A stretch of 63,619 nucleotides of DNA, the filler included. It is 4 parts of 4 records of this genome, joined end to end, with 100 filler letters (N's around TTAATTAATTAA, not from the genome) between each part and the next. Parts side by side here need not be neighbours in the genome. Positions count along the whole stretch, not along the records: positions 1 to 17,271 come from SRR20825019_2749; 3 more parts are not named here. One strand, written 5' to 3'. The notes below the pieces were generated by a model, which searched no databases, was not told the DNA's origin, and saw nothing but the letters and a program-made list of their open reading frames with translations. Shown piece by piece: positions 768-23,799 of this stretch. The position numbers and the translations under genes are program-made. Position 1 is the first letter of the stretch; each line of letters opens with the position of its first letter.

Positions 768-1029
768 GATGAAGAGAGGGGCGGCATTGTGGCCGGAAAT
801 CAAGTCTGCAACGTCTTAAGAAGTATGATGACCACTGATTGGGTTGAGGTAGGGCGAACCGTTCCGGTGAGCCGCGGTTCCGGCTTCGCCAAAGTCATGA
901 TGGACAAATAGGCGAGGATGACTCGCCCAACCTTTGAAACGACATTTCATTGAAACCACCCGATGCTGTTACTTCGATCCCTTCTGTTTTGCGATTTGCG
1001 AAATCCGCTCCCATGCGCACGCTACCACC

Positions 1030-1904: not shown

Positions 1905-2003
1905 GACTGAGGGACACCATGCGGCCCACGTAGTTCGGTGCAATTGGGAATTGGTTGATAGTTTCTCATTGCGCGGCGGCTCGCCCGAGCGTGAAGTTGC
2001 GCC

Positions 2004-3410
2004 ATGGCCAAGAAGAATTCACAAGCCACTTGGGGCGGACGCTTCACGGCGGGCCCTGCCAAGCTGATGCTCAAGTTTAGCGAATCGGTATCATTCGATA
2101 ACCGTCTCGCGTTGTTTGATATTGCGGGCAGCAAAGCTCATTCTGCGATGCTGGCCAAGGTAGGCCTGATCTCGGCCAAGGAGCGCAACGCGATCCACAA
2201 GGGGCTCGATGTGATTCAAAAGGAGATCGTCGCTGGTAAGTTTGCATGGGACGAACGCTTTGAAGATGTGCATATGAACATCGAGCAGGCCCTGACGGCC
2301 CGCGTGCCGGCGGCGGCGAAATTGCACACCGCCCGGAGCCGCAACGATCAAGTGGCCACGGATATGCGGTTGTGGTTCAAGGCCGCCTCCCAGGATTTGG
2401 TCGATCTGTTCTTCGAAGCCCAACGCGCCTTGCTGGCGATCGCCCGGGCCAACCCTGAAGTGCTGATCCCCGGTTACACCCATTTGCAACGCGCCCAACC
2501 CGTCTACCTTGCGCATCATCTGTTCGCGTGGATGGAAATGCTGGACCGTGATCGGGAGCGGTTTGAACGGCTGCAATCTCTCGCCAACTGGTGTCCGTTG
2601 GGCTCCGGTGCGATTGCTGGCACGACGTTGCCAATCGACCGCGAGTTCACCGCGAAAGAGTTGGGTTTTGTCGACGCGAAGGGCCGTCCTCAGGTGTCAC
2701 AGAACTCCATGGATACGGTCGCGGATCGCGATCTCTTCATCGAATTTGCCAACGCCTGTGCGATGGCGGGCGTGCATTTTTCCCGGATCGCCGAGGATCT
2801 GATTTTGTGGAGCAGCACGGAGTTTAATTTCGTGGAATTACCCGATGCGTTCTGCACCGGCTCCTCGTTGATGCCGCAAAAGAAGAACCCCGATTCCTGC
2901 GAATTGCTGCGTGGTAAATCCGCCCGCCTGCAGGGGAATCTCCATACTTTGCTCACCTTGGCGAAGGGACTTCCACTGACCTACAACCGTGATTTGCAGG
3001 AGGATAAACCTCCGGTGTTTGACAGCTACGATCAGATGGTGATGTGCGTGGAAGTGCTCACCGGCACGATTGGCGGGATGACGATCAAGGAAAGTTCCTG
3101 TGCGGCCGCCGTCGCCGATCCGGCATTGCTGGCGACCGATCTCGCCGACTATCTGGTGGAAAACGGCGTGCCGTTTCGTGAAGCGCACCACGTGGTGGGC
3201 GCGGTCGTGCAACTTGCGGAGAAGAATTCCGTGCAGCTCGATCAGATACCGACCGAGGAAGTGCAGAAACTGCACCAGGCGTTCAAGGCGGACTGGGTGG
3301 AGGTTTTCGATTTGAAACGTGCGATGTCGAAACGTGCGGGCACCGGCATGCCCGGCCCGACGCAGTTGCGTAAGCAGTTTACCCGTTGGGGACGACGGTT
3401 GCGAGACTGA
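2004..3410 (+). CDS. argH: Argininosuccinate lyase
   Basis: [44 protein letters not shown] signature. Confidence 0.98.
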
Positions 3411-4819
3411 TGGCGACGCTGTTTCCCACGCAAAAATCTGATCCTGAATTATACCCCTATCGATCAGGCCTGGTCTTCGGCTTTTTCAACGCGCTGGTTT
3501 GGCAGATTGCGATTGGCACGCCGATGGTGCTGTTTGCCGAGCAACTCGGCGCGAGCTCGTTCCAAGTGGGGCTGGCCTATTCGTTCGTGTTTCTGCAGAC
3601 GCCGTTGCAAATCTTCGCAACGGCGTTGCTGCCGCGCTACGGTTTCAAGAAACTGGCGATGCGCGGGTGGGCGGCCCGGAGTGTCTTTTTGCTGATTCCG
3701 CTCGCGCTGGCGATCATCGCTCCCGAATCGGGCAACCTCTGGATGATCAATACCTTCATCGCGAGCGTCTTCTTCTTTTGTATTTTTCGGACGATCGGGG
3801 CATCGGCCCTGACGGCGTGGATTTTCGGATTTCTACCGCCGGAAATTCGCGGTCGTTATTTCGGGAGCGATCAGATGATCGCCGGCATCGCCGGGGTGGG
3901 CACGCTGGTGGCCTGCGCTGCGCTGTTTGCATTTTTACCGATCTACACGGCGTTGCTCGTTCAATACGGGATCACGATCATCGGTTCGGTGTTGAGCTAT
4001 ATTTCGATGGCGAAGCTGCCGGATATCGAGCGGCCCACCTCGATCAGTTTGTGGTCGGTGCTGCGGGATACGCCCCGTCATCTTTTCCATCCATCTCCGT
4101 TTCGTAGGTTCATGTGGCTGTCTGCCTGGTTTATGATTTCGACCACCTCGATCCCACCGTTTGCGGCCTATTATCTGAAGACGGCGGCGCATCAGTCGGC
4201 CGGACATATCATGCTCTTTGAAGTGATGCGTTATCTGGGGGTCATTGCGGGGGCCTGGTTGATTCGACGTCGCGTGGACGCGACCGGGGCGAAACCGTTT
4301 TTCCTGCTCGGACTGATACTCTACGTGGGAGTGGCTGTTTTCTGGTTGTTGTTTCTGCAAGGGTTTCTCGGGAGTGGCAGCGTGTTTTTCGGGCTTTACC
4401 TCCTGCTCGGTTTGAGCGCGGTCACATGGAATATCGCGAATCTGAACTACCTACCGCAGGTGGTCGCGGGTGAACATCGTGCATTGGTTATCTCGATTCA
4501 CGGCGCCGTGACCGCCTGCTTGGGTGGTTGTTCGCCGATCTTGCTGGGCTTGGTGCTGCGCGGCCAGACCCCGACGGGTGAACCCACGATGAATACGGAG
4601 GCGTTTCAGTGGTTCTTCGTGACGCTGATCCTGAGCCTGAGCGTGCTCTCAATCTTTATGGCGCGGTTGAAAGAAGATCGTTCGATTGAGGTGGAGCCTC
4701 TCGTGATCGGTAATGCTCTGTTCCGGCCGTTCCGCGCCGTGAGCTACCTGGTCAATTTGATGGATCTGCTGAATTTGGCCAAAGGTCGGGAAAAACCCTC
4801 AAAACCGGCGGAAGACTAA
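3410..4819 (+). CDS. MFS-type transporter
   Basis: About 12 hydrophobic segments, PPEIRGRYFG loop; ATG overlaps the argH stop (TGATG). Confidence 0.8.
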   Translation: MATLFPTQKSDPELYPYRSGLVFGFFNALVWQIAIGTPMVLFAEQLGASSFQVGLAYSFVFLQTPLQIFATALLPRYGFKKLAMRGWAARSVFLLIPLALAIIAPESGNLWMINTFIASVFFFCIFRTIGASALTAWIFGFLPPEIRGRYFGSDQMIAGIAGVGTLVACAALFAFLPIYTALLVQYGITIIGSVLSYISMAKLPDIERPTSISLWSVLRDTPRHLFHPSPFRRFMWLSAWFMISTTSIPPFAAYYLKTAAHQSAGHIMLFEVMRYLGVIAGAWLIRRRVDATGAKPFFLLGLILYVGVAVFWLLFLQGFLGSGSVFFGLYLLLGLSAVTWNIANLNYLPQVVAGEHRALVISIHGAVTACLGGCSPILLGLVLRGQTPTGEPTMNTEAFQWFFVTLILSLSVLSIFMARLKEDRSIEVEPLVIGNALFRPFRAVSYLVNLMDLLNLAKGREKPSKPAED

Positions 4820-4867
4820 TTCCACGCTTCCGTCTTCACGGGTTTCCGTGATTGGGTGCTGGTTCCT

Positions 4868-6667
4868 ATGGCTACAGTTCGCATCTTACCCGACCGGGTC
4901 GCCAATCAAATCGCTGCTGGCGAGGTGATCGAGCGCCCGGCAGCCGTGGTTAAGGAACTGGTGGAAAACGCGCTCGATGCCGGGGCGACCCGGATCGAAG
5001 TCGAGTTCCGCCATGGCGGGCGTTCGCTGATGCGGGTGGAGGATAACGGTCAGGGAATGAGTCAGGACAACGCCCTGTTGTCGCTCGAGCGACACGCGAC
5101 GAGTAAGATCGCGGAGGCCGCCGATCTGGATGTTCTGGGCAGTTACGGGTTTCGCGGCGAGGCACTCCCATCGATCGCGAGTGTGTCGCGTTTCGAAATG
5201 CAGACCCGTGAGGAGGGGCATGATGTGGGCACGGAGATTCTGGTGAATGGTGGCAAGCTCGTGCACGTGCGTGAATGTGGTCGTCCGGTCGGCACGAGTA
5301 TCGCGGTCACGCATTTGTTCAATTCGGTGCCCGCGCGACGTAAGTTTCTGAAGACGGATCAGACCGAAGCGGCGCACATAATTCAGTGCGTGCGATTCTA
5401 TGCGTTGGCCAGTCCGCAGGCGGCATTTACGCTGATCGAGAACGGGCGGGTGATTTTCAAATCACCGGAATGTGCGACCCTCCGGGACCGGGTGGCGGAG
5501 ATCTTTGGCCGGCAGACCTCCGAATCGCTCGTCGAAATTTCCAACGAAGAGGGAGGCATGCGTTTGCAGGGGCTGATCGGTCAACCGGGCACCGGCCGGG
5601 GCACGCGCCACGAGATGGTGATCTTTGTGAATCAGCGTCCGGTGGACAGTCGCACGCTGAATTATGCGCTGATCGAGAGTTATCACGAATCGTTGCCGAA
5701 GGGACGCTATCCGGTCGCGTTTCTTTTCTTCGAATGCGATCCGGCGGCGGTGGATGTGAATGTGCATCCGGCAAAACGCGAAGTGCGATTCCGGAGCGAA
5801 CCCGCGGTGCGGGCCTTTGTGATTCGGAGCGTGCTGGGCCGCTTGCGCGAACTCACGGATACGGCCCGACCGGAAGCGGAGCCCGCCACGGAATCGAACA
5901 CGCCGACAGCCGTGGCTCCGACTCCCCAGAGGCCGCCGCTCGCCACGCGGCCTCCGATGACGTTCCAATCAAAGCCCCTCGCTCCTCTGTCTCAAGTCGC
6001 TCCGGTGAGGCCCGCGGCGCGCGAGCCGACAACTCCAAGGCCGGAATCCGCCGCGCCCACCACCGCCGCGTCTGAATCACCCCGGTCGCCGACGTGGCGC
6101 TATCTTGGGGTCGCGCATACGAATTTCGCGCTCTTTGAAACCTCCGCTGGGGTGGTGATGCTGGATCGGCGGGCGGCCCATGAACGGATCTGGTTCGAGC
6201 GATTACAGGGGCAGTTCAAGGTCGGCAAAGTGCCGAGCCAGCGACTGTTGCTGCCGGTGCCCGTCGAACTCGATCCGATCGCGGCAGCCATGTTACTGGA
6301 TCGACTGACGTTTCTGAACGAGCACGGTTTCGAAGTCTCGGAGTTCGGGCGGAATTTTTTCCGGATTGAGGCGCTCCCGGCGTGGATGGAACCCTCAGTT
6401 GCAGAAAGCTTTATGCGTGATTTCCTCGGGCTGTTGCGCGAGGGCCGTCTGCCGGAAGGTAATGTGGATTTGGCGCGCGACGAACTGGCCCGATTGGCTG
6501 TGTCCAAGGCCGTGAAACTCCCCGGGAATCCCAATGAAACAGAGGTGAGGTCGCTATTAGCGCAGCTATTTGTCACACAGCATCCTTTGACGAGTCCGTC
6601 CGGACGCCCCACATATATTGAACTTAACCACTCCGAGCTGGCCCGGCGCTTTCAGAAAACTTCTTGA
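4868..6667 (+). CDS. mutL: DNA mismatch repair protein MutL
   Basis: NQIAAGEVIERP, GFRGEAL, DVNVHPAKREV, Pro/Ala linker, C-terminal DRRAAHER and SPSGRP. Confidence 0.97.
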   Translation: MATVRILPDRVANQIAAGEVIERPAAVVKELVENALDAGATRIEVEFRHGGRSLMRVEDNGQGMSQDNALLSLERHATSKIAEAADLDVLGSYGFRGEALPSIASVSRFEMQTREEGHDVGTEILVNGGKLVHVRECGRPVGTSIAVTHLFNSVPARRKFLKTDQTEAAHIIQCVRFYALASPQAAFTLIENGRVIFKSPECATLRDRVAEIFGRQTSESLVEISNEEGGMRLQGLIGQPGTGRGTRHEMVIFVNQRPVDSRTLNYALIESYHESLPKGRYPVAFLFFECDPAAVDVNVHPAKREVRFRSEPAVRAFVIRSVLGRLRELTDTARPEAEPATESNTPTAVAPTPQRPPLATRPPMTFQSKPLAPLSQVAPVRPAAREPTTPRPESAAPTTAASESPRSPTWRYLGVAHTNFALFETSAGVVMLDRRAAHERIWFERLQGQFKVGKVPSQRLLLPVPVELDPIAAAMLLDRLTFLNEHGFEVSEFGRNFFRIEALPAWMEPSVAESFMRDFLGLLREGRLPEGNVDLARDELARLAVSKAVKLPGNPNETEVRSLLAQLFVTQHPLTSPSGRPTYIELNHSELARRFQKTS

Positions 6668-6710
6668 ACGTTGACGCGACTGGCACGAATCCTGTTTCCC
6701 TCTCTCATCC

Positions 6711-9209
6711 ATGCCTGCTAACAAAAAGACTGCCAAGACAGCGACCACCGCCAAACGAATCCCCCAGGATCCGCCCGAAGTTGTGCTGCGTTCACTGATT
6801 TTGCGTCACCTCACATCCACGCTGGCCCGGCATCAGGCAGGTGCGACGCCCCGTGATTGGTGGGTGGCTACGGCGCTCGCCGTGCGCGATACGATTCATC
6901 AGCGGATGATGAAAACGCAGGCGGCCCATGCGAAAGGCAATGTGCGTCGGCTCTACTACTTTTCGATGGAGTATCTGATGGGCCGTTTGTTTGAGAGCAA
7001 TCTGCACGCGACCGGCATGGAGGAAACGGCGCGTCTGGCCTTGGCCGATCTGGGAGTTGACTTCGAAGCGGCGCGGGAATCGGAACTCGATATGGGCCTC
7101 GGCAACGGGGGCCTGGGTCGTCTCGCTGCCTGCTTTCTCGATTCGCTTTCCACGCAGGATTATCCGGCGTTGGGCTACGGCATCTACTATGAGTTTGGCC
7201 TCTTCAAACAGGAGTTTGTGAACGGCAAACAAATCGAGCACCCCGATCGCTGGCGGGTGTTTGGCAGTCCGTGGGAAGTGGTGCACTCGGATTACTCGCA
7301 GGTCATACCTTACGGCGGTCGCGTGGACCATGTCTTTGATGATCGCGGCAATTCGAAACCCCGCTGGGTGGATACGGAGACGATTCTCGGAGTGCCGCAC
7401 GACATCCCCATCGCGGGATACGGCACCGGCACCGTGAATCTGTTGCGCCTCTGGTCTTCCCACGCGACGGAGGATTTCGATTTGGCGGCGTTCAACTCCG
7501 GTGGATACGAGGAAGCTGTGCGGGAGAAGGCCGCCGGTGAGACGATTTCGAAGGTGCTTTACCCGAATGATACGACGGAAAACGGCAAGGAACTGCGGCT
7601 TGTGCAGCAGTATTTCTTTGTGGCGTGTTCGCTGCGCGATTTGATCCGCCGGCACTTCCGCGATGATGCGAATACTTGGGATAACTTTTCCGATAAGGTC
7701 GCGATTCAACTCAACGATACCCATCCGGCCATTGCGGTGGTGGAGTTGATGCGGATTCTCCTCGATGATCATCATCTCGCGTGGGACGACGCATGGGCGA
7801 TTGTGGGGCGCACCTTTGCCTACACGAACCACACGCTTTTGCCGGAAGCGCTCGAGAAGTGGGGCGTGCCGTTGTTTGAGAAGGTCTTGCCACGTCACCT
7901 CGGAATCATCTTCGAGATCAACAGTCACCTGATGGCGTCCTGCGAAAAACAGTGGCCGGGAGACAACGAGAAGAAACGCGTGTGCTCCATTATTGAGGAA
8001 AACGGAGGCAAGATGGTGCGCATGGCCAATCTCGCAGTGGCCGGATCGCATACGGTCAACGGGGTCGCGGCATTGCACACCGTGTTGTTGCGCAAGCATC
8101 TCTTTCCGGAGTTCGACGCCTTGTATCCCGGCAAGTTTCAGAACAAGACCAATGGGATCACCCCGCGTCGCTGGTTGCTGCAGTGCAATCCTCGTTTGTC
8201 GAAGTTTATCACCGGCCATCTCGGCCATGATAAATGGGTCCGGAATCTCGATGAATTGCGCGGCCTGGAAAAACTGGCCAAGGATAAGCAGGCGCAGGAA
8301 GAGTTCATGGCCATCAAGCGGGCCAACAAAGTCGATCTCGCGGCGATTATCAAAGCGGACTGTGGTCTCGACGTATCGCCCGAGGCGATCTTCGACGTGC
8401 AGATTAAACGTCTGCATGAATACAAGCGTCAGCATCTGAATCTGCTGCACATTCTCGGGCTGTATCGCCGACTCCTGCAGGATCCCGGTCTCGATATCGT
8501 GCCCCGCGTGTTTGTCTTCGCGGCGAAGGCCGCTCCCGGTTACGACCTCGCGAAAAACATTATCCGCGCAATCAATGTGATCGGCAACAAGATCAACAAC
8601 GACGAGCGCATCGGGGGGAAACTCAAGATCGCGTTTCTGCCCAACTACCGTGTCTCATTGGCTGAAAGAATCATTCCGGCGGCGGATCTGTCCGAACAGA
8701 TTTCCACTGCCGGGAAGGAAGCTTCCGGCACGGGCAATATGAAACTCTCGCTCAATGGCGCACTGACCATCGGCACGCTCGATGGGGCCAACGTTGAAAT
8801 CGGCGAAGAAGTCGGCGACGACAATATCTTCATCTTCGGTCTCACGGTGGAAGAGGTCGAAGCGCTCCGCGAAAAGGGTTATCACTCGCGTAAGGTTTAC
8901 GAACAGGACGAAGAAATCCGTCATCTGGTGGATTGGCTCGGTAGCGACTATTTCACTCCGGGAGAGCATGGTGCTTTTGCTCGGTTGCATCACAGTTTGC
9001 TGGACGGGAATGATCCCTATCTGGTTTTGGCCGACTACCGTTCCTATGCCGAATGTCAGGCCCGGGTGGATGAAGCGTATCGCGACCAAAGCAAGTGGGC
9101 CGAGATGGCGATCCTCAACACGGCGCGCGTCGGCAAATTCTCCAGCGATCGCACGATTCGGGAATACGCGGAACAGATCTGGAATCTACCAGCCGTTCCA
9201 GTGGAGTAG
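6711..9209 (+). CDS. glgP: Glycogen/maltodextrin phosphorylase
   Basis: [34 protein letters not shown] site EASGTGNMK. Confidence 0.97.
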
Positions 9210-9485
9210 CCTCGGGATCGATTTTGTGACGTTTCTTTAATGCCGTGGACACAGGGCCCATCATCACGCCCCTGCATACTGTCATGGCGGGGAGCGTGGC
9301 CTCGTGACCCTCGACGATTACTCTTCCGTTGACGCCTGCCTACCGGTGGATTGCCGCTGCCGTCCCACCGCGTGGGACCAAAAATGACACATTGGAGAGT
9401 TCATTGGCGGGAGTCTGGCGATGGACGACGTCATCCACGACCGCTTGCTTAACCAGTTCCAATAGATGCCTCCATGTGATCTTCG

Positions 9486-9557
9486 AGTGAATGTCACTTA
9501 ATAAGTGACATTCACTGGGTGAGGGAGGGGGTAAAGATGTCACCTATTAAGTGACAT
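9486..9557. repeat. Pair of related palindromes (ATGTCAC-N7-GTGACAT), REP-like or operator-like
   Basis: 9486-9516 is a perfect 15-bp inverted repeat AGTGAATGTCACTTA-A-TAAGTGACATTCACT; the reverse complement of 9537-9557 matches its 21-bp core at 20/21. Confidence 0.75.
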
Positions 9558-9571
9558 GTTGGATTGGGGAC

Positions 9572-10834
9572 TCAGGTTTGTCGGAAAATCAGTCCGACAT
9601 TGCTGCCGCCGAAACCGCTGCTGGTGCTCAGAATCGTGCGCGGGGCTTCGTCGAGCGTGGTCCGGGGGAGGTCGAGTCCTTCGCAGGCTTCATCCGGCGT
9701 TTTCAGATGGTGATTACCGGGAATGAATTTCTCCTTGATCGCGAGGGCACAAAACGCGCCCTCCATGACACCGGCCATGGAAAGCGGATGGCCGGTCAGG
9801 CCTTTGGTGCTGCTCACACGAGGCGTGGCTCCTGCCTCCGTAAATATTTTCCGAAGGGCCCGGGCTTCGGATTGATCACCGGCGGGCGTAGAAGTGGCAT
9901 GCGCGTTGATGTAATCGATATCACCGGCGTGGAGATTACAATCGGTCAGGGTTCGATTGATGGCATCGGTCAAACCGGTGCCTTCGGGATGAGAGACGGC
10001 GATGTTGTAACCATCGGCGGCCTGACCCCAGCCCGCCAATTCAGCATAGATTGGTGCGCCGCGTTGCTGCGCAAATTCGGCTTCCTCGACGATCATCGCC
10101 ACGGCGCCACAGGAGCCGACAAAGCCATCGCGATCGACATCGAAGGGACGCGAGGCAGTATCGGGATCCGCATTGGCGGAGAGGGCGCGCATCGCGGCAA
10201 ATGGTAAAATGCTCTCCACGGTGGCTTCTTCGGCGCCAACGACAATCATGCGCTTCTGGCGGCCCAGACGAATATCATCCAACGCGCAGCCGAGAGCGTG
10301 GCTGGATGAGGCGCAGGCGGCCGCAAATCCGCCGACCGCACCGCGGATGCCGTAGAAGGCGGCGAGATTGAAATTCAGTGTGCCGGCGATTGAGGAGACG
10401 ACGCTCAGAGGACTGCAACGTTCACCTCGGGTTTCAAACATCCGGTTCAGATGATGATACGTCATCATCGTGGATCCGGCCGAAGCGCAATACAGCCCCG
10501 TTTCCCCGTCCCGCACGGATTGACTGGTGAGACCGGCATCGGCAAGGGCCTGCTCAATCGCACAGATCGAGAAGAGACCGTGAGGTGAAAACCCGCGCAA
10601 CGCTTCGCGGGGGATCGAATAGTTTTCCGGATAGCGCCAATCGCGCCAATTTGCGGCGGTGGCATCGAACCCCTTTAAAGTGCCGATGACTTTGACGGAC
10701 ACATTGGGATTTTCGAAATACTCGACGGGAGCGATACCGTGTCGCCCCTGCCGCAGACTTTCAACCACGGTAAGACGGTCGTTGCCAATGGGGGTAATCA
10801 GACCGAGACCGGTAACAAGGGCTTGGCGGGGCAT
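9572..10834 (-). CDS. Beta-ketoacyl-ACP synthase (FabB/FabF family)
   Basis: VTGLG, catalytic AACASS, INAHATST, STKGLTGH, SGFGGSN. Confidence 0.95.
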   Translation of the reverse strand: MPRQALVTGLGLITPIGNDRLTVVESLRQGRHGIAPVEYFENPNVSVKVIGTLKGFDATAANWRDWRYPENYSIPREALRGFSPHGLFSICAIEQALADAGLTSQSVRDGETGLYCASAGSTMMTYHHLNRMFETRGERCSPLSVVSSIAGTLNFNLAAFYGIRGAVGGFAAACASSSHALGCALDDIRLGRQKRMIVVGAEEATVESILPFAAMRALSANADPDTASRPFDVDRDGFVGSCGAVAMIVEEAEFAQQRGAPIYAELAGWGQAADGYNIAVSHPEGTGLTDAINRTLTDCNLHAGDIDYINAHATSTPAGDQSEARALRKIFTEAGATPRVSSTKGLTGHPLSMAGVMEGAFCALAIKEKFIPGNHHLKTPDEACEGLDLPRTTLDEAPRTILSTSSGFGGSNVGLIFRQT

Positions 10835-10849
10835 TCAGACGAAAGAAAT

Positions 10850-11236
10850 TTAGGAGTCGCTCGCCGCGGTGAGTTTATTGCGGAGGAAATATCGCAGATC
10901 GCCGATGGTGCGCAGGTTCATCAAATCCTTGTTGCTGATGGAAACATCGAAGACTTCCTCAATGACAAAGACGGCATCGGAAATGGATACGGAATCGATC
11001 CCGAGATCGCCAACCAAGGTGGATTCATCGGTGAGAGTGGCCGGAATTTGCCCCACTTTGCGTGAAGGCACGTGATCCCTGATGATCGCAATGACCACCT
11101 CATCTGCCGCCGCCATATCCCTGTGCTTGAGGAAACGCTGAAATGCATTGCGAACCTGAACAGGGAAAGGGGCCAGTGCTTCGGCGGCTTGTTCACTGGG
11201 CTCGGTGTTCAAAGAAGGTGATACGGATGAATCCAT
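10850..11236 (-). CDS. Acyl carrier protein with N-terminal extension
   Basis: GDLGIDSV phosphopantetheine-site motif, IEEVFDV, TIGDL; 15 bp upstream of the KAS gene. Confidence 0.8.
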   Translation of the reverse strand: MDSSVSPSLNTEPSEQAAEALAPFPVQVRNAFQRFLKHRDMAAADEVVIAIIRDHVPSRKVGQIPATLTDESTLVGDLGIDSVSISDAVFVIEEVFDVSISNKDLMNLRTIGDLRYFLRNKLTAASDS

Positions 11237-11311
11237 GCAATGGAGAGGCATGCGATGTAAAGCGACAGGCGCAAGATGTCCGGATGAAAACGGGTTAAAT
11301 CCGAGCTGCGA

Positions 11312-11336
11312 TGTTAAATTTGAGAAACTTTTAACA
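11312..11336. promoter_or_regulatory. Candidate operator TGTTAAA-N11-TTTAACA in a divergent intergenic region
   Basis: 7-bp inverted repeat in the AT-rich gap between ACP-KAS and the ydbH-like operon. Confidence 0.3.
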
Positions 11337-11458
11337 AATAGATGCATGCTGATTGCATAAGTAGTCACTCTACGAATACTGTAAAACGATGTCGCCATGC
11401 TATTAGCGGGATGGATTCGAGTCTAGCCACGCCACGGGCTTTGCGAAATCAATGAACT

Positions 11459-12697
11459 ATGCACCGAGTCCTGCTGGTCAGTTTGATCTTTCTTCTGGGA
11501 GGCGCGCGCGCGGTTGCCACGGAATGGCCGCTGCTCGCGGGCGGACTGGAGGGGGATTTTCGGATGCGTGTTTTGTCGGGGGCTCCGCCGATCAAGTGGA
11601 AGTTGGAGGCAAACGATGCCAGACCCTCAGAGAATCGAATGCTCTTCAGTGCTCATGCGAGCGGATTGGATATGCGACTGCTGGTGGTGTTACCCCGGGA
11701 TGGTTCGGAGGGACGCTGGGAACTTGAGGAAGCCCGGTTCGATGTTTCACGGTGGTGGTCGTATCTCGTCAATTCGGGATTCCTGAAAGGCATGCCTGAA
11801 GATTTGAAGCTGACCGGGGAAGTGCTCCTCGCGGGGCAAGGGACATTGCGTGGGATGCAACCCGAGGGAAAAATCACTTTCACACTGCCCGCCGGCTCGC
11901 TCGCCAGTGTCGCGCAGAAATGGAAGGTGCCGCATTTGATCATGAATGGTCGCGTGACGCTGACCGATGCCGTGCCTGTGCTCGATACGCTGTCGTTGAC
12001 GGCCCCTCGCGCCGAAGTGCTGGGGTTTATTCTGGAGAGTATTCAGGCGAGAGCGGGCGGTGAAACGCCAGATCAGTTGCGCGTGTTGGAACTCAGATTC
12101 GGCATGCTTGGCGGCCGGATTGAGGTGCAACCCTTTTCGCTGGATCTGCAACAGCCGGTGATTGCGGCGATCGTGGAGTTGCAGGATGTGGCGCTGTCGG
12201 AACTCGCTGCGTTGGTGCCCGAGGCTTTGAGTTCGGCTGAAGGCCGGCTCAATGGAGCCTTGGAAATCGGCTGGAGTGCCTCGATGGGAGTGCAGGCAGG
12301 GAAGGGGGCGCTGCATTTGTCCCAAGACAGTTCGACATCTTTATATCTCGCCGCGACGCCGGGATTTTTAACGCAACATGCCCCCAAAAAAATTCAGTGG
12401 CTGCCGTCGATGTTGGGAGCACTGGCAGAAAGGCTTGCGCTGGAAAATCCGGCTTTCGAGACGTTGCAAAAAATCGAAATGGGGGAGATGGGATTGACGG
12501 TCGATACGCTGGATGTGGCCCTTTATCCCGATGGACCCGACGGCTCGGTTTCGGCCCGGGTGGCGGTATCGGCGCGACCCAGTGATCGCAGTTTTGTCGA
12601 AGAAGTGAGTTTTGATGTCTCCGTGACCGGGCCACTCAAAGACGTTCTGCTGCTGAGCGCCGATGATCGTGTGAAGATCGGGGTTAAATCAAAGTGA
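11459..12697 (+). CDS. YdbH-like intermembrane lipid transport protein (short form)
   Basis: Signal peptide, amphipathic beta-strand pattern, MLGGRIEVQPF and AEGRLNG motifs; precedes YnbE- and YdbL-like genes. Confidence 0.65.
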   Translation: MHRVLLVSLIFLLGGARAVATEWPLLAGGLEGDFRMRVLSGAPPIKWKLEANDARPSENRMLFSAHASGLDMRLLVVLPRDGSEGRWELEEARFDVSRWWSYLVNSGFLKGMPEDLKLTGEVLLAGQGTLRGMQPEGKITFTLPAGSLASVAQKWKVPHLIMNGRVTLTDAVPVLDTLSLTAPRAEVLGFILESIQARAGGETPDQLRVLELRFGMLGGRIEVQPFSLDLQQPVIAAIVELQDVALSELAALVPEALSSAEGRLNGALEIGWSASMGVQAGKGALHLSQDSSTSLYLAATPGFLTQHAPKKIQWLPSMLGALAERLALENPAFETLQKIEMGEMGLTVDTLDVALYPDGPDGSVSARVAVSARPSDRSFVEEVSFDVSVTGPLKDVLLLSADDRVKIGVKSK

Positions 12698-12727
12698 GAT
12701 GAAACCTGCATTGCGCTTTGTGGTCTA

Positions 12728-12925
12728 ATGTTTCTGATGAATTCCATGCTTCGCCGAATCCCTGTGTTCCTCCTGTTGCCAATCCTGGGTGGTTGTATTC
12801 ATGTGAAGATGGATCCGATCAAAGTGCACGCGACCGTGGATGTGAATGTGAAGGTGGATCGCGCGTTGGATGATTTTTTCGGCGATCTCGATTTGAAATC
12901 CACGACCATTTCCAAGGACTCCTAA
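12728..12925 (+). CDS. YnbE-like small lipoprotein
   Basis: Lipobox LGGC, PIKV..VDVNVKVD pattern, position in operon. Confidence 0.75.
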   Translation: MFLMNSMLRRIPVFLLLPILGGCIHVKMDPIKVHATVDVNVKVDRALDDFFGDLDLKSTTISKDS

Positions 12926-12938
12926 CCCCGTCGTTATC

Positions 12939-13313
12939 ATGAAACTTTCTCTACGTGTATTCAGTCTCTGCTGTCTTTTCCTCGGTGCACTCAGCCCGGC
13001 ACTCTATGCTCAGGATATGGGGGCCCTCCGCGATCGGATGGTCGAGCGCCTCGGCTCCTTGGATTCGCTGAAAGCGTCGGGAGCTATTGGGGAAAACAAC
13101 CAAGGTTTTGTGGAGGTCCGCGAAAATGAAGGCAATGCGGCCTCCGTCGTCGCTGCGGAGAACGCGGACCGTGAAACGGTTTACGCGATGATCGCGAAGC
13201 AGCAAGGTGCCACCGCCTCACAGGTCGGCCAAGCTCGCGCCCGCCAAATTGCCACCGGCAGCGCTTCGGGAGTTTGGCTGCAGAGCGCCAACGGCACTTG
13301 GTATCAAAAGTAG
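12939..13313 (+). CDS. YdbL (DUF1318) family protein
   Basis: GAIGENNQGF, ENADRETVYAMIA, GVWLQ..GTW motifs. Confidence 0.85.
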   Translation: MKLSLRVFSLCCLFLGALSPALYAQDMGALRDRMVERLGSLDSLKASGAIGENNQGFVEVRENEGNAASVVAAENADRETVYAMIAKQQGATASQVGQARARQIATGSASGVWLQSANGTWYQK

Positions 13314-13338
13314 GAATCTCCCAAAGCGGAAGAGGCGG

Positions 13339-13974
13339 CTAGCCTGTGGGTTTGTCGCCGGATTTCGGGCCCGTTGCATTTCGCGTGGGGAGTTCCAGAT
13401 CGTTTCCTGTCATGACGGCAATGGCCAAAGGCAGCCCGAGTGCCATGACGGAGGGAATCAACCACATCGGTTTTACCTCAAGCACAAAGCCGATCAGTGC
13501 TACCGCGCCCATACTCATGATGAAGAAACCCTGAAAATTGCGAAAGGCGAAGAGCCCGGTGAGACCGATGATCAGTCCACCCAGCCCGACTTGCCAAGTG
13601 GTGAGCGCAACTATCAGACCGATGAGGTAGCCAATGGGTGCGAGCATCACTTTCTCATCACGTCGAGTATAGGTCTGTCCCCAGATAGCTACCGTGATCA
13701 GTCCAAGGAAGAGACAATATTCCGGCACCGCCGTGAGGTTCCAATAGATGGAATCCAGGCCGAAAGCCTGTTTAAGCAAGAATCCGCCGAGCAGTCCGCG
13801 CACCGGATCGATCCATAGCACCGGAACCCACCACCAAGGGCGGAAGCGAGAGCTGTTCTCCAGACTTTGAAAACAGTCAAAACTACGCAGTTGCACCGCG
13901 GATGACAGGAGTCGGTCCGCCGGGTAAAACAGCAGTAACATCCCCGGCACGAATAGACTCCAGTAAATTGTCAT
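13339..13974 (-). CDS. Integral membrane protein, possibly a degenerate PlsY-fold protein
   Basis: 211 aa, about 7 hydrophobic segments, IDPVRG at the position of the PlsY D.LKG motif. Confidence 0.6.
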   Translation of the reverse strand: MTIYWSLFVPGMLLLFYPADRLLSSAVQLRSFDCFQSLENSSRFRPWWWVPVLWIDPVRGLLGGFLLKQAFGLDSIYWNLTAVPEYCLFLGLITVAIWGQTYTRRDEKVMLAPIGYLIGLIVALTTWQVGLGGLIIGLTGLFAFRNFQGFFIMSMGAVALIGFVLEVKPMWLIPSVMALGLPLAIAVMTGNDLELPTRNATGPKSGDKPTG

Positions 13975-14145
13975 TGAACTCCTAACAATCCGAGTGGAGG
14001 TGGGAATAGTCCACCGTCATCGGCAATCCGCGCGAGGCACTCTCCTAACCGACTTCCCCGTGAGCCGCTTCCGGCAGTAATAGTCTAGGCGAAGATGACC
14101 TTCCCGTGATTGACGCGCGGGGGTGTGCGGGCCATCACCTTGGCT

Positions 14146-15705
14146 ATGCCTGAATCATCCGCCCCGGTCGCGTCGAAACGCGGCGTGTTCCAGCGTTTAC
14201 TCGATGCGATTGAATGGGTGGGCAATGCCCTGCCGAATCCCGCGACTCTCTTTGCGCTGCTGGCCGGTGTTGTCGTCCTGTTGTCAGGTCTGCTTCACGC
14301 CATGGGCGTCGAGGTCGTCAATCCCGCCACAAAGGAAACGGTGGGCGTGGTCAGTTTGATGACGGTGGAAGGGCTGCACCGGATGCTCATGAATGCAGTC
14401 ACGAATTTTTCCGGATTCGCACCCATCGGCACGGTGCTGGTGGCGATCCTCGGGATCGCGGTGGCGGAATCGTCGGGTCTGATTGGAGCGGTCCTGCGGG
14501 TCACCGTGAGCAAGGCGCCTCCGGCGGCCCTCACGGCCGTGATCGTGTTTGCCGGAATCATGTCCAACGTCGGCAGTGATGTCGGTTACGTGCTGCTCAT
14601 TCCGCTGGCTGGAGCGGTCTTCGCCGCAGTGGGACGACATCCGCTCGCTGGAATCGCGGCCGGGTTTGCCGGGGTCTCCGGTGGATTCAGTGCGAACCTG
14701 CTCCCCGGCACCGTCGACGTGTTGCTGGGAGGGATAACTCAGGAATCCGCCCGCTTGCTGGTGGCCGACTACACTGTTTTGCCGACGGCGAACTACTACT
14801 TCATGTTCGTGGCCACCTTTTTTGTGACCATTGCCGGCACCTGGATTACCGAACGCGTCGTCGAGCCGCGCTTACAAGGCAGCGAAGGGATGTCGAAGGA
14901 AGCCTCGCAAGTGCAGACCTTGAATCAGGCGGAAAAGAGAGGACTGCTTTATGCCGGTCTGGCCACCCTCGTCCTCACGGTGATTGTCGTGTGGGGGATC
15001 CTGCCGTTTGGATCAATCAGCGGAGCGGGCTTCCTGCTCGATCCGGCCAATCCGGTCTTCACGTCTTCGATTTTCATGCGGGGTATCGTGGTCTTTATCT
15101 GTATCTCGGGGATTATTCTCGGTGTCGCCTACGGAGTCGGGGCGGGCACCGTGAAGAGCGACCATGATGTCATCGCCGGGATGTCCAGATCGATGGCGAC
15201 GATGGGTTCTTATCTCGTGCTGATGTTCTTCTGTGCCCAGTTTGTGAACTACTTCGCATGGACGAATCTCGGCACGATCACCGCCGTAACAGGAGCGGAA
15301 CTCCTGCAGGCCTCGGGTTTGGGAGCCGCCCCGCTGACCGTTTCGGTGATCTTCTTCACGGCCTTTATTAATATATTCATCGGCAGTGCTTCGGCGAAGT
15401 GGACTCTCCTTGGTCCGGTGCTGGTGCCGATGTTCATGCTGGTAGGCTATTCGCCGGAGTTTGTGCAGGCCGCTTATCGGGTGGGGGACAGTTGCACCAA
15501 TATCATCACTCCGCTGATGGTTTACTTTCCGCTCGTGCTGACCTTTGCCCAGAAATACGCCCCGAAAACCGGGATCGGCACCCTGATCTCCGTGATGATG
15601 CCGTATTCCATCGGCTTCATGATTATCTGGTCGCTGCTTCTCGTGCTGTGGATCTTCACCGGTTGGCCCCTCGGTCCCGACGCTCCGATGTTTATCACGC
15701 TGTGA
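14146..15705 (+). CDS. AbgT family transporter
   Basis: GNALPNP, GRHPLAG, VSGGFSAN, SASAKW, YRVGDSCTNIITP, WPLGP. Confidence 0.95.
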   Translation: MPESSAPVASKRGVFQRLLDAIEWVGNALPNPATLFALLAGVVVLLSGLLHAMGVEVVNPATKETVGVVSLMTVEGLHRMLMNAVTNFSGFAPIGTVLVAILGIAVAESSGLIGAVLRVTVSKAPPAALTAVIVFAGIMSNVGSDVGYVLLIPLAGAVFAAVGRHPLAGIAAGFAGVSGGFSANLLPGTVDVLLGGITQESARLLVADYTVLPTANYYFMFVATFFVTIAGTWITERVVEPRLQGSEGMSKEASQVQTLNQAEKRGLLYAGLATLVLTVIVVWGILPFGSISGAGFLLDPANPVFTSSIFMRGIVVFICISGIILGVAYGVGAGTVKSDHDVIAGMSRSMATMGSYLVLMFFCAQFVNYFAWTNLGTITAVTGAELLQASGLGAAPLTVSVIFFTAFINIFIGSASAKWTLLGPVLVPMFMLVGYSPEFVQAAYRVGDSCTNIITPLMVYFPLVLTFAQKYAPKTGIGTLISVMMPYSIGFMIIWSLLLVLWIFTGWPLGPDAPMFITL

Positions 15706-15722
15706 GGAGGATTCCTTTTCAG

Positions 15723-15788
15723 CTCCATCGATTCAGGTCAGACACGACCGGGCGCAGCCCGGTCGTTGTCTGTGTCGACTGGATGGGC
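15723..15788 (-). other. attC site (terminal), ATC/GAT core
   Basis: Minus strand: GCCCATC-cagtc-GACACAGA-caacgaccggg ctgcg cccggtcgtg-TCTGACC-tgaatc-GATGGAG; canonical box spacing and an extra unpaired base. Confidence 0.85.
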
Positions 15789-15793
15789 CGTCT

Positions 15794-16321
15794 TCATGTG
15801 GGCCAAGCAACGTCCTTTCGGGTCCGAAGCTCAAACTCGAAACGGCTTTCTTGAAAGGCCGACTCGCCTGCAATGCGCCAGCGAACGACTACGACAAGAC
15901 GCTTCGCATGCACAAATTCATCGGCGCGAACCACGCCATGCTCTACGATGCGATCTCGCGCCAGCCAGACATCAGGGGAGAGTGGTTCTGGCGTCAGAAT
16001 GCGCTTCAGGTTTAACTCTTTCTTCTCGTCGGTATCGGGCGCAGACAACACCACCGACTCTATCTCGATCTTCTTTGCGCTGCGGCTACAGATATAGAGA
16101 TGGCCTTCAGGCGAGTAACCAGGCCAGAACTTCGTGAAATCCGGCACTAGCAAGGTTGCTCCATCGAACTGAGTGCCCGATGGCAACTTGGGATCGGGCA
16201 ATTCCCACCTTAGCCCCTCACGGAGGCCATGTGTGGGCGAATGCACGAACGCATGAACATCGACAATCTTGCAGCCGGACAGCATTAGCACACAGGCAAG
16301 TAACGGTAGCGAACTCTTCAT
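15794..16321 (-). CDS. Cassette C: hypothetical lipoprotein
   Basis: MKSSLPLLACVLMLSGC lipobox; ATG 8 nt after R' GATGGGC. Confidence 0.8.
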   Translation of the reverse strand: MKSSLPLLACVLMLSGCKIVDVHAFVHSPTHGLREGLRWELPDPKLPSGTQFDGATLLVPDFTKFWPGYSPEGHLYICSRSAKKIEIESVVLSAPDTDEKKELNLKRILTPEPLSPDVWLARDRIVEHGVVRADEFVHAKRLVVVVRWRIAGESAFQESRFEFELRTRKDVAWPT

Positions 16322-16329
16322 CTTTGTTT

Positions 16330-16437
16330 GCCCATCGTTAAAAGTGAGACACGCCGTCAAGGAGGTGTGAAATGAATCCTGGGCCTCGCGATAAAAAGGA
16401 CAACGCCAACGGCGTTGTCTCTACTGGCTGGTTGGGC
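16330..16437 (-). other. attC site, R'' GCCCAAC / R' GATGGGC
   Basis: GCCCAAC-cagcc-AGTAGAGA-caacgccgt...acggcgtg-TCTCACT-tttaac-GATGGGC; L''/L' pair perfectly except for one extra base. Confidence 0.92.
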
Positions 16438-16461
16438 ACTTCTAATGAATCGACTGCTGAA

Positions 16462-16761
16462 TTACACATCGTCTGTAAGTCCGTGCCTCATTGCGGTAAG
16501 GTGATTGGCATAATCCGCCCTCGTATGGCTATTGATGTCCAATCGCTTTTTCTTAGCCCAAGCGATCAGCATATCTACATCCACGTAAGTCTTATGGACA
16601 GTGTGACCCCTGCTTTCGAGGTCCTTAACAGTCTCTTCGGCTTTCGAAAGCCATTCTGAATAGTGCCCGGCCATAGATGTGCGGTCCTTGCTGTAATTGC
16701 GCAGCTTTTCCCATTGATGCTCATAATACCAAGCCACCCCTAATTCGGAATTATCGTTCAT
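16462..16761 (-). CDS. Cassette B: 99-aa hypothetical cytoplasmic protein
   Basis: ORF MNDNSELGVAWY... starts 13 nt after R' GTTGGGC and stops before the attC; lower GC than host genes. Confidence 0.8.
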   Translation of the reverse strand: MNDNSELGVAWYYEHQWEKLRNYSKDRTSMAGHYSEWLSKAEETVKDLESRGHTVHKTYVDVDMLIAWAKKKRLDINSHTRADYANHLTAMRHGLTDDV

Positions 16762-16774
16762 CGTGAAATTTGAT

Positions 16775-16835
16775 GCCCAACGATTACGATGAGCCACGGC
16801 CGCTTGCGGCCGTTGGCTCGGGCAGCTGGATGGGC
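16775..16835 (-). other. attC site, R'' GCCCATC / R' GTTGGGC
   Basis: GCCCATC-cagct-GCCCGAGC-caacggccgc aa gcggccgtg-GCTCATC-gtaatc-GTTGGGC. Confidence 0.88.
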
Positions 16836-17227
16836 ATCTGGTAGACCTCCCACTCGCTGACGGTCCCGTCAAAATCCCCGCTGCCTGTGCCATCCTTCTT
16901 CATGCCAATCGTCGTGCTCAATGCGCGAACCTGGTAGCCATCGATAGGGTAGCTGACCAAAACAGTTCCGTTCTGGTATTGAATCACTTCCTTATGCCAC
17001 TTGCGAAATGGCGAGAGGTCACTTACGACAAGCGAACCAGTCTGGGGTATTCGATACACCAAGAAACCTTCTTCTCTGGCCGGATGGACACCCACATTGC
17101 GCTGCAACGTAATCGAGAAGCGTCCGACGAAACCATCAGGCAAGACAATCTTGACTGGGGTTCCGCTTCGGTGACAGCCAGCCGTGAAGAGCATGCAAAC
17201 GAGAAGGAGCTTGGTGAGACCGGTCAT
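16784..17227 (-). CDS. Cassette A: hypothetical lipoprotein
   Basis: MTGLTKLLLVCMLFTAGC lipobox, IVLPDGFVG motif; reads through its own attC. Confidence 0.8.
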   Translation of the reverse strand: MTGLTKLLLVCMLFTAGCHRSGTPVKIVLPDGFVGRFSITLQRNVGVHPAREEGFLVYRIPQTGSLVVSDLSPFRKWHKEVIQYQNGTVLVSYPIDGYQVRALSTTIGMKKDGTGSGDFDGTVSEWEVYQMPIQLPEPTAASGRGSS

Positions 17228-17235
17228 CTTTCTTC

Positions 17236-17271
17236 GCCCATCGCTAAAGCTGAGCCGCGACGGCCAGCGAA
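17236..17271 (-). other. Partial attC (3' half), R' GATGGGC
   Basis: ...gtcgcg-GCTCAGC-tttagc-GATGGGC-gaagaaag-ATG; cut by contig end. Confidence 0.75.
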
Positions 17272-17371
17272 NNNNNNNNNNNNNNNNNNNNNNNNNNNNN
17301 NNNNNNNNNNNNNNNTTAATTAATTAANNNNNNNNNNNNNNNNNNNNNNNNNNNNNNNNNNNNNNNNNNNN
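17272..17371. other. Artificial contig linker
   Basis: N44-TTAATTAATTAA-N44, stops in all six frames. Confidence 0.99.
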
Positions 17372-22146: not shown

Positions 22147-23799
22147 ATGGTACGAGTAGGTGTTAGACGGCGGGCATCTGACCGTGAGCTGCTATCCTTT
22201 ATTACCGAGAGGTGTAAAGCATACGCCCTGAGCGGAAACTACTGTATGGCGGCCGACTACACCCTGCGGTGGCTCGACAAGGAGCCCCGTAACGCGGACG
22301 CTCTTGCCCTGGGCTCTGCCCTGGGACAGGTTGTGGGTCAGCCAACTCTATCAGAGAAGTGTCTGAGCGTGCTGGAGGGCAGTGTAGCAGCAGGGGGATT
22401 GAGGGTGCGCTGTAATGCTGCCCCTGGTGGTGTTGCAAGGAGGGTAACCCATCCCAAGTTCGACGGTAAGACCCTCCCCAATCTTTGGTCTGAAGTATCC
22501 CCCTCCACTGCCAATATTGTGCGGAGTGTGGCGATGTCTTCCGGAAACGATGTGCCCGAGTTTGCCCACATCCAAGCCCGCCCGGGTGATGTTGCGGAGG
22601 TGCCAGTCCAGCTCCCACCTCCCGGTATTGAAACCCTTGCCATCGGTTCCAACCTAGAGATGCCCATCATCCAATCCCTCCTCAGAGAGGCTAGCTGGGC
22701 TACCACTACCGGTGGGAGGCAGGTTCCCATGGATAGTGGATATGAGTGCCCCATTGCCGTTATGGCCCCCGAGGGTAGTACATTTGGTCGCGGCCTCTTT
22801 ACGACATCACCCCTGAAAATGGGGGATACCCTTCTCGACGAGGAGGCTGTGTTGTCGGTCACAAGTCTATCCAGCTCATCCAGCCTACTTCACAATGCCG
22901 AACATACATCCTCCCTGAGTGTGTGCTTCCATTGCGGGGAGCGTATTGGCAAACCGGTGGGGTGTACCCAGAAGTGTGCGGCCGTCAAGTACTGCACTGC
23001 AGCTTGTGAGGAGCAAGCATTCGAGGCATTCCACGCCTCAACCTGCGAGGCCAAGAACCCATCCTACAGCCACTGGGAGGGACAGATCATCGAGGACTGC
23101 CGCCGGCCTCTGGAGGAGGCCCACCAAGAGCTGACAACCATCGCCCCTACAGCCATCAAGGGCAGTGGTGTACGGCCCCTGATGAGGATCCCCGAGGTCC
23201 AACGTGAAACAGGGGAGTCCATTCGGGCCCACATCCGACATGCCCACTCAGCCCTCACCATGATGGGTGTTGGACGCCTGTGTGCCATCGCAGCCACCGA
23301 GAGGAAGCATCCCCTCTCCGTACCTGCCCTTGCCATACTTACTGGCAAAACGGAGTACAGCACCGAAGCGACACTAATCCACACCGGTGCCCTTGCAGTG
23401 GGACTCAGCAGCTCTCTCGCCCAGCCCCACCTATATCTAGACGATGTGGTCTCTTTGTATGCCCTACTTCAAACGAATGGGTTCTTCAACGCACTCCTTC
23501 ACCCCAAGGGGATCATGGCGACCCTCCACCTGTTCCCCCTCCTATCCCTGCTCAACCACAGCTGCTTACCTAACTGCCGACTAGAGCGATACAATGTCAA
23601 CACAGTGTCCGCTGGTGCGGCTGACTTCGGGTCGGGGCAGCGACTGGTCACCATTCGGGACGTCAAGCCAGGGGAACAGCTATTTATCAACTACAACGAT
23701 GAGCTCATCACCCCATCCGCACCCTACACCGTGCGGAAAGAGCTACTGGAGCAGCGAGGGTTTGCATGTACATGCGATAGGTGCCTCCTACGGAAGTAA
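22147..23799 (+). CDS. SET and MYND domain (SMYD-like) lysine methyltransferase
   Basis: GRGLF, CxxC..CxxxC..YC..C zinc finger, LNHSCLPN, GEQLFINY, post-SET CTCDRC. Confidence 0.9.
   Translation: MVRVGVRRRASDRELLSFITERCKAYALSGNYCMAADYTLRWLDKEPRNADALALGSALGQVVGQPTLSEKCLSVLEGSVAAGGLRVRCNAAPGGVARRVTHPKFDGKTLPNLWSEVSPSTANIVRSVAMSSGNDVPEFAHIQARPGDVAEVPVQLPPPGIETLAIGSNLEMPIIQSLLREASWATTTGGRQVPMDSGYECPIAVMAPEGSTFGRGLFTTSPLKMGDTLLDEEAVLSVTSLSSSSSLLHNAEHTSSLSVCFHCGERIGKPVGCTQKCAAVKYCTAACEEQAFEAFHASTCEAKNPSYSHWEGQIIEDCRRPLEEAHQELTTIAPTAIKGSGVRPLMRIPEVQRETGESIRAHIRHAHSALTMMGVGRLCAIAATERKHPLSVPALAILTGKTEYSTEATLIHTGALAVGLSSSLAQPHLYLDDVVSLYALLQTNGFFNALLHPKGIMATLHLFPLLSLLNHSCLPNCRLERYNVNTVSAGAADFGSGQRLVTIRDVKPGEQLFINYNDELITPSAPYTVRKELLEQRGFACTCDRCLLRK

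Follow-up and report, generated by a model that had tools for sequence, protein, structure and literature searches.

The stretch of DNA analysed here, 63,619 nucleotides in length and referred to as the window, consists of four contigs joined by N-linkers, the first of which (1-17271) terminates in a series of small gene cassettes separated by attC recombination sites. This series forms the distal end of a genuine array of integron cassettes in an Opitutaceae genome, and its cassettes very probably recombine by the canonical crossover after the G of the R' box, the neighbouring base being an A/T variation that is borne and compensated by each cassette within a pool common to the family, with no new integrase specificity required. 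The AAC/GTT triplet (AAC in R'', GTT in R') is usually treated as the one fixed sequence feature of attC and attI, and is relied upon in hand annotation as well as by the models that call sites.

The array occupies 15723-17271 on the minus strand and continues up to the contig break; it contains three small cassettes (A, B, and C) and four attC sites, of which three are complete and one is truncated (Table 1). The sites do not carry the conserved triplet throughout: R' reads GAT in three of the four boxes, and R'' reads ATC in two of three. In R' the G and the final T are retained, as are the C and the A at position 5 in R''; the middle base alone varies, between A and T, the bases concerned being the A of R' at 17241, 16335, and 15728 and the T of R'' at 16830 and 15783. 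A preliminary description of this DNA had read the box letters correctly, with only the position of the first R' G having to be amended, to 17242. It had also stated that the two ends of each cassette are perfectly complementary, and the first six bases of each are indeed the exact complement of its own R'' in all three cases (ATGGGC/GCCCAT in cassettes A and C, TTGGGC/GCCCAA in cassette B); inside a single site, the variable bases pair in one case out of three.

The sites possess the attC architecture, namely an imperfect inverted repeat of the form R''-spacer-L''-variable loop-L'-spacer-R' with an unpaired spacer and extrahelical bases. A loose R''...R' regular expression run over the 63.6-kb window returned intergenic attC-like pairs at these three places only, the other matches lying in coding sequence. 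Folded as single-stranded DNA, both strands of each site surpassed their shuffled counterparts (z = -2.0 to -5.8), and a bulged T was present on the 3' arm of the plus strand in all three. Two models were built for these sites. R2, derived from 12 GTT/AAC sites of relatives only and containing no window sequence, scored attC A/B at 68.6, attC B/C at 57.0, and the last site (C/end) at 44.9 bits (E 2.8e-15 to 4.9e-9). R1, seeded with two window sites and eight short sites from relatives, its two variable columns being left unpaired, gave 74.4, 54.3, and 75.7 bits, respectively, the first and last of these sites being R1 seeds. In an alignment of 150 sites, fitted to R1 and hence favouring its structure, 87.6% of cells were paired as compared with 29-38% when the partners were slid, and 17 of the 20 base pairs displayed changes on both sides; the observed measures were reached by none of 500 shuffles. 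Rfam, which has no attC family, yielded no meaningful match for the window sites, and a first ad hoc stem-score caller was dropped because it recovered only one of the three. The folds, the R2 scores, and the covariation together support the original recognition of integron cassettes with attC architecture.

Relatives were sought through the AbgT-family transporter encoded beside the array, which is 86-89% identical to homologues of a Cephaloticoccus metagenome-assembled genome (MAG) and of two Opitutaceae MAGs. The survey covered 401 genomes of the family around a relative, G001, taken to be Opitutaceae, and the integron integrase model TIGR02249 scored above its cut-off in 159 of them. A signature common to the three window sites (GCCCAWC-CAGYY-N8-CAACG) gave 69 matches in 41 of the 401 genomes, as compared with five (by our own count) for the same signature read backwards. 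GCCCATC was the reading in 32 of these matches, found in 16 genomes, and several matches lay beside intI. The box pairs GATGGGC/GCCCATC and GATCGGC/GCCGATC recur in many genomes.

The co-variation of the two cassette ends was measured in two collections. Set 1 was made up of 20 regions picked from the signature matches, in which R1 gave 198 matches at E ≤ 1 in 347 kb with the window included; its pairs were drawn from relatives only, with sites of at least 25 bits and neighbours at most 1500 nt apart. Set 2 was made up of 20 regions centred on intI, a choice independent of the pattern, with 84 matches. In each pair, the base after the G of the upstream R' was compared with base 6 of the downstream R''. 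The variable base was complementary in 141 of the 152 cassette-level pairs of set 1 (T-A 110, A-T 31, A-A 4, T-T 3, G-T 3, and C-A 1), a number reached by none of 10,000 shuffles of the R'' boxes within arrays (mean 107, maximum 123). Across the six outer positions, a mean of 5.58 were complementary at the cassette level as against 4.64 at the site level. Strict pairs, whose four outer positions all match and which are thus the two ends of one cassette, numbered 27 A:T, 1 A:A, 2 T:T, and 92 T:A in set 1 (Fisher p 1.3e-23) and 5 A:T, 0 A:A, 1 T:T, and 49 T:A in set 2 (p 1.7e-6). At the site level, in the mixed arrays of set 1, ATC was followed by GAT in 19 cases and by GTT in 22, and AAC by GAT in 19 and by GTT in 68. 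Of the 182 sites of set 1, 45 were of the ATC type, as were 9 of the 83 sites of set 2, and both types stood within one array in 11 of 17 arrays of set 1 and 5 of 17 of set 2, which bears out the suggestion that GAT- and GTT-type cassettes are shuffled together. The co-variation of cassette start and R'', for which the preliminary description had proposed to scan related genomes, is hence found in Opitutaceae relatives in both sets and indicates that GAT is a compensated property of the cassette and not drift, as had been claimed. Selection would presumably maintain it because the R box has to be paired once the cassette is excised.

The point of crossover can be read from sites that share one body. 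Two sites of G027 (L152:15116-15176 and L152:9023-9083) are identical save for a T or an A directly after the G. In addition, unitigs in three sequencing runs, comprising the two that hold the stretch, which are probably its source, and one of another study (contigs being compared, not reads), share window positions 17242-17271 and diverge at 17241, where the GTT-type start TTCTAC replaces ATGGGC; the switch thus falls exactly after the G. Identical attC bodies with different starts, together with the complementarity of each start to its own R'', agree with the earlier statement that whatever follows the R' G is already part of the next cassette. The same attC type adjoins intI in seven relatives (G222, G027, G168, G052, G070, G049, and G165), where a complete integron consisting of intI, attI, and an array was seen. 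In six out of six complete integrons examined, there is a conserved attI junction, ...AATAACACT|G (in G070, AATAAAACT), after which comes the exact complement of the R'' of the first cassette. The junction of G222 reads G|ATCGGC with GCCGATC as the first R'', which places a GAT-type cassette in the first position, where cassettes enter; in a wider look at intI loci, about 22 such junctions were found and one was GAT. The crossover read from these sites and junctions is canonical, G|W, and the cassettes may be mobile at present. The integron of G070 (L157) has intI at 1880-2794 (+), the attI junction at 2950, and the array on the plus strand, so that intI is co-oriented with its cassettes and attI lies just past its 3' end; the other complete integrons examined are divergent.

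The IntI of G222 (L150:1315-2832) scored 366.2 bits against the TIGR02249 cut-off of 265 and matched VchIntIA (2A3V) with an E value of 2.5e-74, the alignment extending over chain residues 19-318 with the IntI-specific insertion included. It retains the lysine aligned to K160 of VchIntIA and is a bona fide integron integrase. Most IntI open reading frames (ORFs) of the family, being open over approximately 440-550 amino acids, share a conserved N-terminal extension of about 150 amino acids, which gave tblastn matches from residue ~28 and no NCBIfam match. A close relative, G002 (L081/L089 9278-9871), contains a truncated integron integrase ORF of about 197 amino acids, recovered as two model pieces of 186.7 and 65.8 bits, with no convincing array beside it; this locus looks like a decayed integron.

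The mechanism proposed would proceed as follows. Recombination would cut R' directly behind its G (bottom strand ...AW|C), and given a crossover at this point both the start (WTRRRY) and the R'' (RYYYAWC) of a cassette travel with it. The start and the R'' of one cassette would pair only upon excision and folding of the attC site. The middle base of the triplet is A in roughly 10-25% of the cassettes of the family, with the matching T in R''. Since both bases face each other only in the excised, folded cassette, a swap from A.T to T.A would be kept there as a pair. Partner sites would require identity at the G alone, with either A or T beside the cut, so that GAT- and GTT-type cassettes can enter the same attI and come to sit side by side. 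Array sites lying between cassettes of different type would, in turn, contain an A.A or T.T mismatch in the folded R box, and such a mismatch next to the cut site is found in roughly a quarter of the sites in mixed arrays.

The GAT/ATC sites are a natural variant of a known system, anticipated by existing biochemistry. Frumerie et al. (2010; PMC2811028), in the parts of the article available, asked why GTT displayed "absolute conservation" in every integron characterised by then. They report that the G alone must be identical between partner sites, the second position being tolerant; that, with IntI1, a change of T2 to A2 accompanied by the complementary change raised the frequency of attC x attI1 recombination and was cleaved in vitro; and that GAT had earlier been reported as a preferred secondary site. 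GTT was accordingly proposed by them to be conserved for the sake of cassette exchange between integrons and not for mechanistic reasons. The same pages describe K171 of IntI1 (K160 in VchIntIA) as contacting the N3 of adenine and the O2 of thymine flanking the scissile phosphate. The tolerance of A and T would then be a general property of integron integrases, exerted through the minor-groove contact of this conserved lysine, and not a new specificity; the second position would be W because A.T and T.A look alike in the minor groove. According to the accessible portion of the preprint by Loot et al. (bioRxiv 10.1101/2022.09.11.507474), the consensus for genomic insertion by IntI1 is 5'-GWT-3'. 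In the available text of Cury et al. (2016), AAC/GTT are the most conserved attC positions and Verrucomicrobia are listed among the integron-bearing phyla. Neither a natural GAT/ATC class nor Opitutaceae integrons were found in the literature within reach, which excluded subscription papers and supplements, whose attC logos or tables could already show such a class, and the accessible parts of PMC7439510, PMC12901181, and PMC8876359 hold no mention of a natural GAT/ATC class.

With canonical attC sites (those of class 1 cassettes and Vibrio VCRs; R'' RYYYAAC ... R' G|TTRRRY), the sites described here share R boxes and L boxes, an unpaired spacer, the bulges on one arm, and the variable loop, as well as one promoterless ORF per cassette, a crossover after the R' G, and, in the relatives, an IntI (TIGR02249) and attI. 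They differ in that a sizeable minority of the family's cassettes has A (R') and T (R'') as the middle base, mixed with canonical cassettes in the same arrays, and in that the bulged bases on the recombined strand are T. The GAT sites engineered in attC(aadA7) and VCR, as given in the accessible part of PMC2811028, hold the same substitution together with its complement, and their partners need not share the second base, as mixed arrays require. Those are laboratory mutants used with IntI1, whereas the present sites are natural, abundant, heritable with each cassette, and chromosomal, and are known from the sequence of a distant phylum. The attG sites of IntI1 (GWT), as far as the preprint of Loot et al. 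was available, likewise accept A or T at the second position of the triplet; attG is, however, a double-stranded target outside integrons, while the W considered here varies inside a folded attC partner and co-varies with R''.

The preliminary description had accounted for these sites by a lineage-specific integrase, evolved to a changed GWT specificity, on which the GAT-type cassettes would depend. The frequency of GAT/ATC in the family (the ATC counts of both sets given above), the conservation of GTT in all integrons characterised by 2010 as stated in the accessible part of PMC2811028, and the N-terminal extension of the family's IntI ORFs speak for such an enzyme. As against this, IntI1 accepts and cleaves GAT with raised frequency and has GWT as its genomic insertion consensus, on the same partial sources, and the DNA-contacting lysine is unchanged. 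In a tree of 27 IntI catalytic regions, 11 rows of which had too few called sites to be classified, the rows with ATC arrays were scattered (seven changes for eight rows, with 295 of 500 shuffles as low). Arrays with ATC sites occur on both deep branches of the family's IntI tree, and pure GTT arrays lie beside close IntI relatives of mixed ones. Since IntI1 accepts GAT and the mixed arrays are scattered over the tree, a lineage-specific GWT integrase is unnecessary; the proposal is improbable and, as worded, was not sustained. It is far less likely still that the array is a dead remnant devoid of an integrase, in which former GTT sites have decayed at random to give the A bases; the co-variation contradicts this. 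The lack of intI in view in the window and the truncated intI of the close relative G002 would suit such decay, which fails to explain why changes are compensated at both cassette ends, why the same GATGGGC/GCCCATC and GATCGGC/GCCGATC boxes recur across genomes, and why a GAT cassette is first at attI beside the intact intI of G222; the same attC body is, moreover, followed by different cassettes, and cassette B has a different neighbour in the data of another study. An artefact of assembly or sequencing at the A positions is next to impossible. The array does lie at a contig end in a repeat-rich region, and contigs were compared instead of raw reads; yet the contigs of the two runs holding the stretch are identical to it, with no differing letter reported at the A positions, and a fourth run, from another study, contains cassette B together with its attC at 95-99% identity, GATGGGC included, the ORF downstream being a different one (again in contigs, not raw reads). 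Over 15 further genomes possess the same GAT/ATC boxes, whose complementary partners lie hundreds of bases from them, and the worry over assembly errors raised at the outset can be set aside.

The reason for the A has been sought in translation as well. The A may have been selected because G|ATG provides a start codon at the first base of the cassette, the T in R'' compensating to keep the R box paired; this ATG would open either the ORF of the cassette or a short leader coupled to the main start by termination-reinitiation. This is a possible driver, albeit a doubtful one. Both GAT cassettes of the window have a five-codon leader opened by this ATG. Among cassettes starting with GATG in the surveyed loci (L150-L189), 17 of 29 have a leader that is opened by the boundary ATG and whose stop overlaps the main start as ATGA, the leaders having 4, 5, 6, 7, or 8 codons and all lying in the same frame; in 9 of the 29, this ATG opens an ORF of at least 50 codons. 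Taken together, leaders and long ORFs occur in 26 of 29 GATG cassettes versus 92 of 150 in the classes that have no start codon first (p 0.0025), and the ATGA overlap alone in 17 of 29 versus 31 of 150 (p 1.2e-4), with the GTTG class (first codon TTG) being intermediate (19 of 53). ORF starts were set in this survey by a simple rule of our own, cassettes were de-duplicated by their first 40 nt only, and the outcome is a correlation of sequence features, all of which tells against reading translation as the cause. So does the GATC class (13 cassettes, first codon ATC), where the A exists without an ATG and nine of the 13 are simply in frame with the main ORF; the boundary ATG thus cannot be the sole reason for the A. 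The pattern could equally reflect selection neutralising a harmful upstream ATG. Coupling by short ORFs across the crossover is known for attI1, whose ORF-11 and ORF-18 are the nearest published analogue of the leader pattern in the accessible part of PMC8876359. The ORF-11, ORF-17, and ORF-18 described there likewise span or abut the core and end at or near the start of the cassette gene; unlike them, the short ORF here would begin inside R', at the very first base of its cassette, and, if the correlation is a guide, travel with it to any position of the array. It is conceivable, without being the favoured view, that the recombination core doubles as a translation signal, a switch from G|TTG to G|ATG being selected for the strong start codon thus gained and supplying a portable leader ORF or the cassette's own start and coupling translation to upstream sequence.

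Several observations weigh against a canonical crossover with compensated, cassette-borne variation and should be given their due. The arrays of set 1 were picked by a pattern derived from the window's own sites. The site-level association in that set is weak but non-zero (odds ratio 3.1, p 0.007), and in set 2 there is no such association (p = 1). The variable base is not complementary in 11 of the 152 pairs, and at least three of these exceptions look real (L154 14920->15308, L163 7767->8212, and L150 4229->5135), some others being low-scoring or distant neighbours, so that an intervening site could have gone undetected. The A seems to be absent altogether from three or four R' boxes, such as ...G-TGGGC before the R'' GCCCATC. 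The tolerance of GAT, in the accessible part of PMC2811028, was demonstrated for IntI1 and VCR-type substrates and not for Opitutaceae integrases. In Logan contigs (contigs, not reads), no joints were reported, and recombination was not observed directly. The array described here shows neither intI nor attI, the contig stopping at 17271 and the upstream part of the array lying outside the window; in view of this, and of the relatives being array-free after abgT, the array could be an integrase-less cluster of attC sites (CALIN). A CALIN is a cluster of at least two attC sites without intI nearby. Boxes seemingly one base short in R' (…G-TAGCC, …G-TCGGC, and …G-TGGGC) were located at L152 4383-4442, L150 13485-13547, and L162 8580-8640, the last in the close relative G001, each followed by an ATC-type R''; the T of ATC would be bulged in their excised form.

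The features of the first contig are collected in Table 1. Each cassette holds one short promoterless ORF on the minus strand that starts 14-20 nt past the cassette boundary, and none of ORFs A, B, and C reached the Pfam threshold. ORF A reads through the R'' and L'' of its own attC (16784-16835) to a stop between L' and R', so that its last ~17 residues are encoded by the recombination site. A tblastn search found no intI anywhere in the window.

Table 1. Positions of the integron features, their ORFs, and the flanking gene along the window
Feature	Positions	Strand	Remarks
Site 0, 3' part of attC cut by contig end	17236..17271	-	R' GATGGGC 17242..17236, G at 17242
Cassette A, GAT-type	16781..17241	-	starts ATGGGC at 17241; final base is the G of the next R' (16781); own R'' GCCCATC
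attC A/B, 61 nt	16775..16835	-	R'' GCCCATC, R' GTTGGGC
Cassette B, GTT-type	16336..16780	-	starts TTGGGC; own R'' GCCCAAC
attC B/C, 108 nt, long variable loop	16330..16437	-	R'' GCCCAAC, R' GATGGGC
Cassette C, GAT-type	15729..16335	-	starts ATGGGC; own R'' GCCCATC
Last attC (C/end), 66 nt	15723..15788	-	R'' GCCCATC, R' GATGGAG
ORF A, 147 aa	16784..17227	-	lipoprotein-like N-terminus (…TAGC); weak, sub-threshold DUF6843 match
ORF B, 99 aa	16462..16761	-	no Pfam family
ORF C, 175 aa	15794..16321	-	lipoprotein-like N-terminus (…LSGC); no Pfam family
Five-codon mini-ORF, cassette A	17224..17241	-	opened by the ATG at the start of the cassette; its stop TGA and the start of ORF A overlap (ATGA)
Five-codon mini-ORF, cassette C	16318..16335	-	opened by the ATG at the start of the cassette; its stop TGA and the start of ORF C overlap
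AbgT-family transporter gene	14110..15705	+	adjoins the array; relatives were found through it
Artificial contig joint, N runs around ttaattaattaa linker	17272..17371	none	

The array ends 17 nt from the stop codon of the convergent abgT, its last R' (GATGGAG, 15723-15729) being separated from that stop by positions 15706-15722. No array follows abgT in the loci of three close relatives (L001-L003), which makes the array a lineage-specific insertion at this spot. Rather than having grown out of an attI at this locus, it may have been inserted at an attG-like GAT site of the genome.

The preliminary description had further supposed that sites of this kind are under-called by attC models built on GTT. 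As a proxy (IntegronFinder's own model was not the one used), a GTT-only model was compared with R1 on 47 non-seed sites, a comparison confounded by R1 seeds that include ATC-type sites related to some of the test sites. Sites with 0, 1, and 2 non-canonical positions changed in score by +2.3, -2.6, and -10.3 bits, and full-length recovery by the GTT-only model was 11 of 12, 17 of 23, and 9 of 12, respectively, with all losses exceeding 80 nt in length. The supposition is therefore borne out in part, as far as this proxy goes, with about 5 bits lost per non-canonical position and fewer long sites recovered, and arrays of Verrucomicrobiota may be somewhat under-called by GTT-trained models. Beyond the family, intI was present in 38 of 151 genomes of a phylum sample, and R1 found only six sites in 323 kb around 20 of these phylum-sample intI genes. 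Two further detectors were discarded on the phylum sample: a hairpin-based one had low recall and picked the opposite strand, and one based on the cassette signature found C and G types as frequently as in shuffled sequence, all four types being at noise level.

Outside the array, the second contig of the window (17372-45322, GC 0.54) encodes a 550-amino-acid ORF (22147-23799, +) with a SET domain and a weak MYND zinc finger, and its large neighbouring ORFs had no Pfam match. The combination of SET and MYND is typical of eukaryotes. This contig may come from another organism than the first.

The existence of a natural, abundant, and compensated GAT/ATC class means that the triplet is not fixed by mechanism, and it constitutes the natural counterpart of the mutagenesis of 2010, in which, by the accessible part of PMC2811028, GAT works at least as well as GTT. 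The co-variation of the cassette ends offers evidence, obtained from the sequences of an uncultured lineage alone, that the crossover falls after the G and that the R box must pair in the excised cassette. The leader pattern at the boundary ATG suggests, in addition, a link between the recombination core and the translation of the cassette. If this were true, the "invariant" triplet could evolve freely in all settings where cassettes are exchanged inside one lineage, in keeping with the proposal of Frumerie et al. (PMC2811028).

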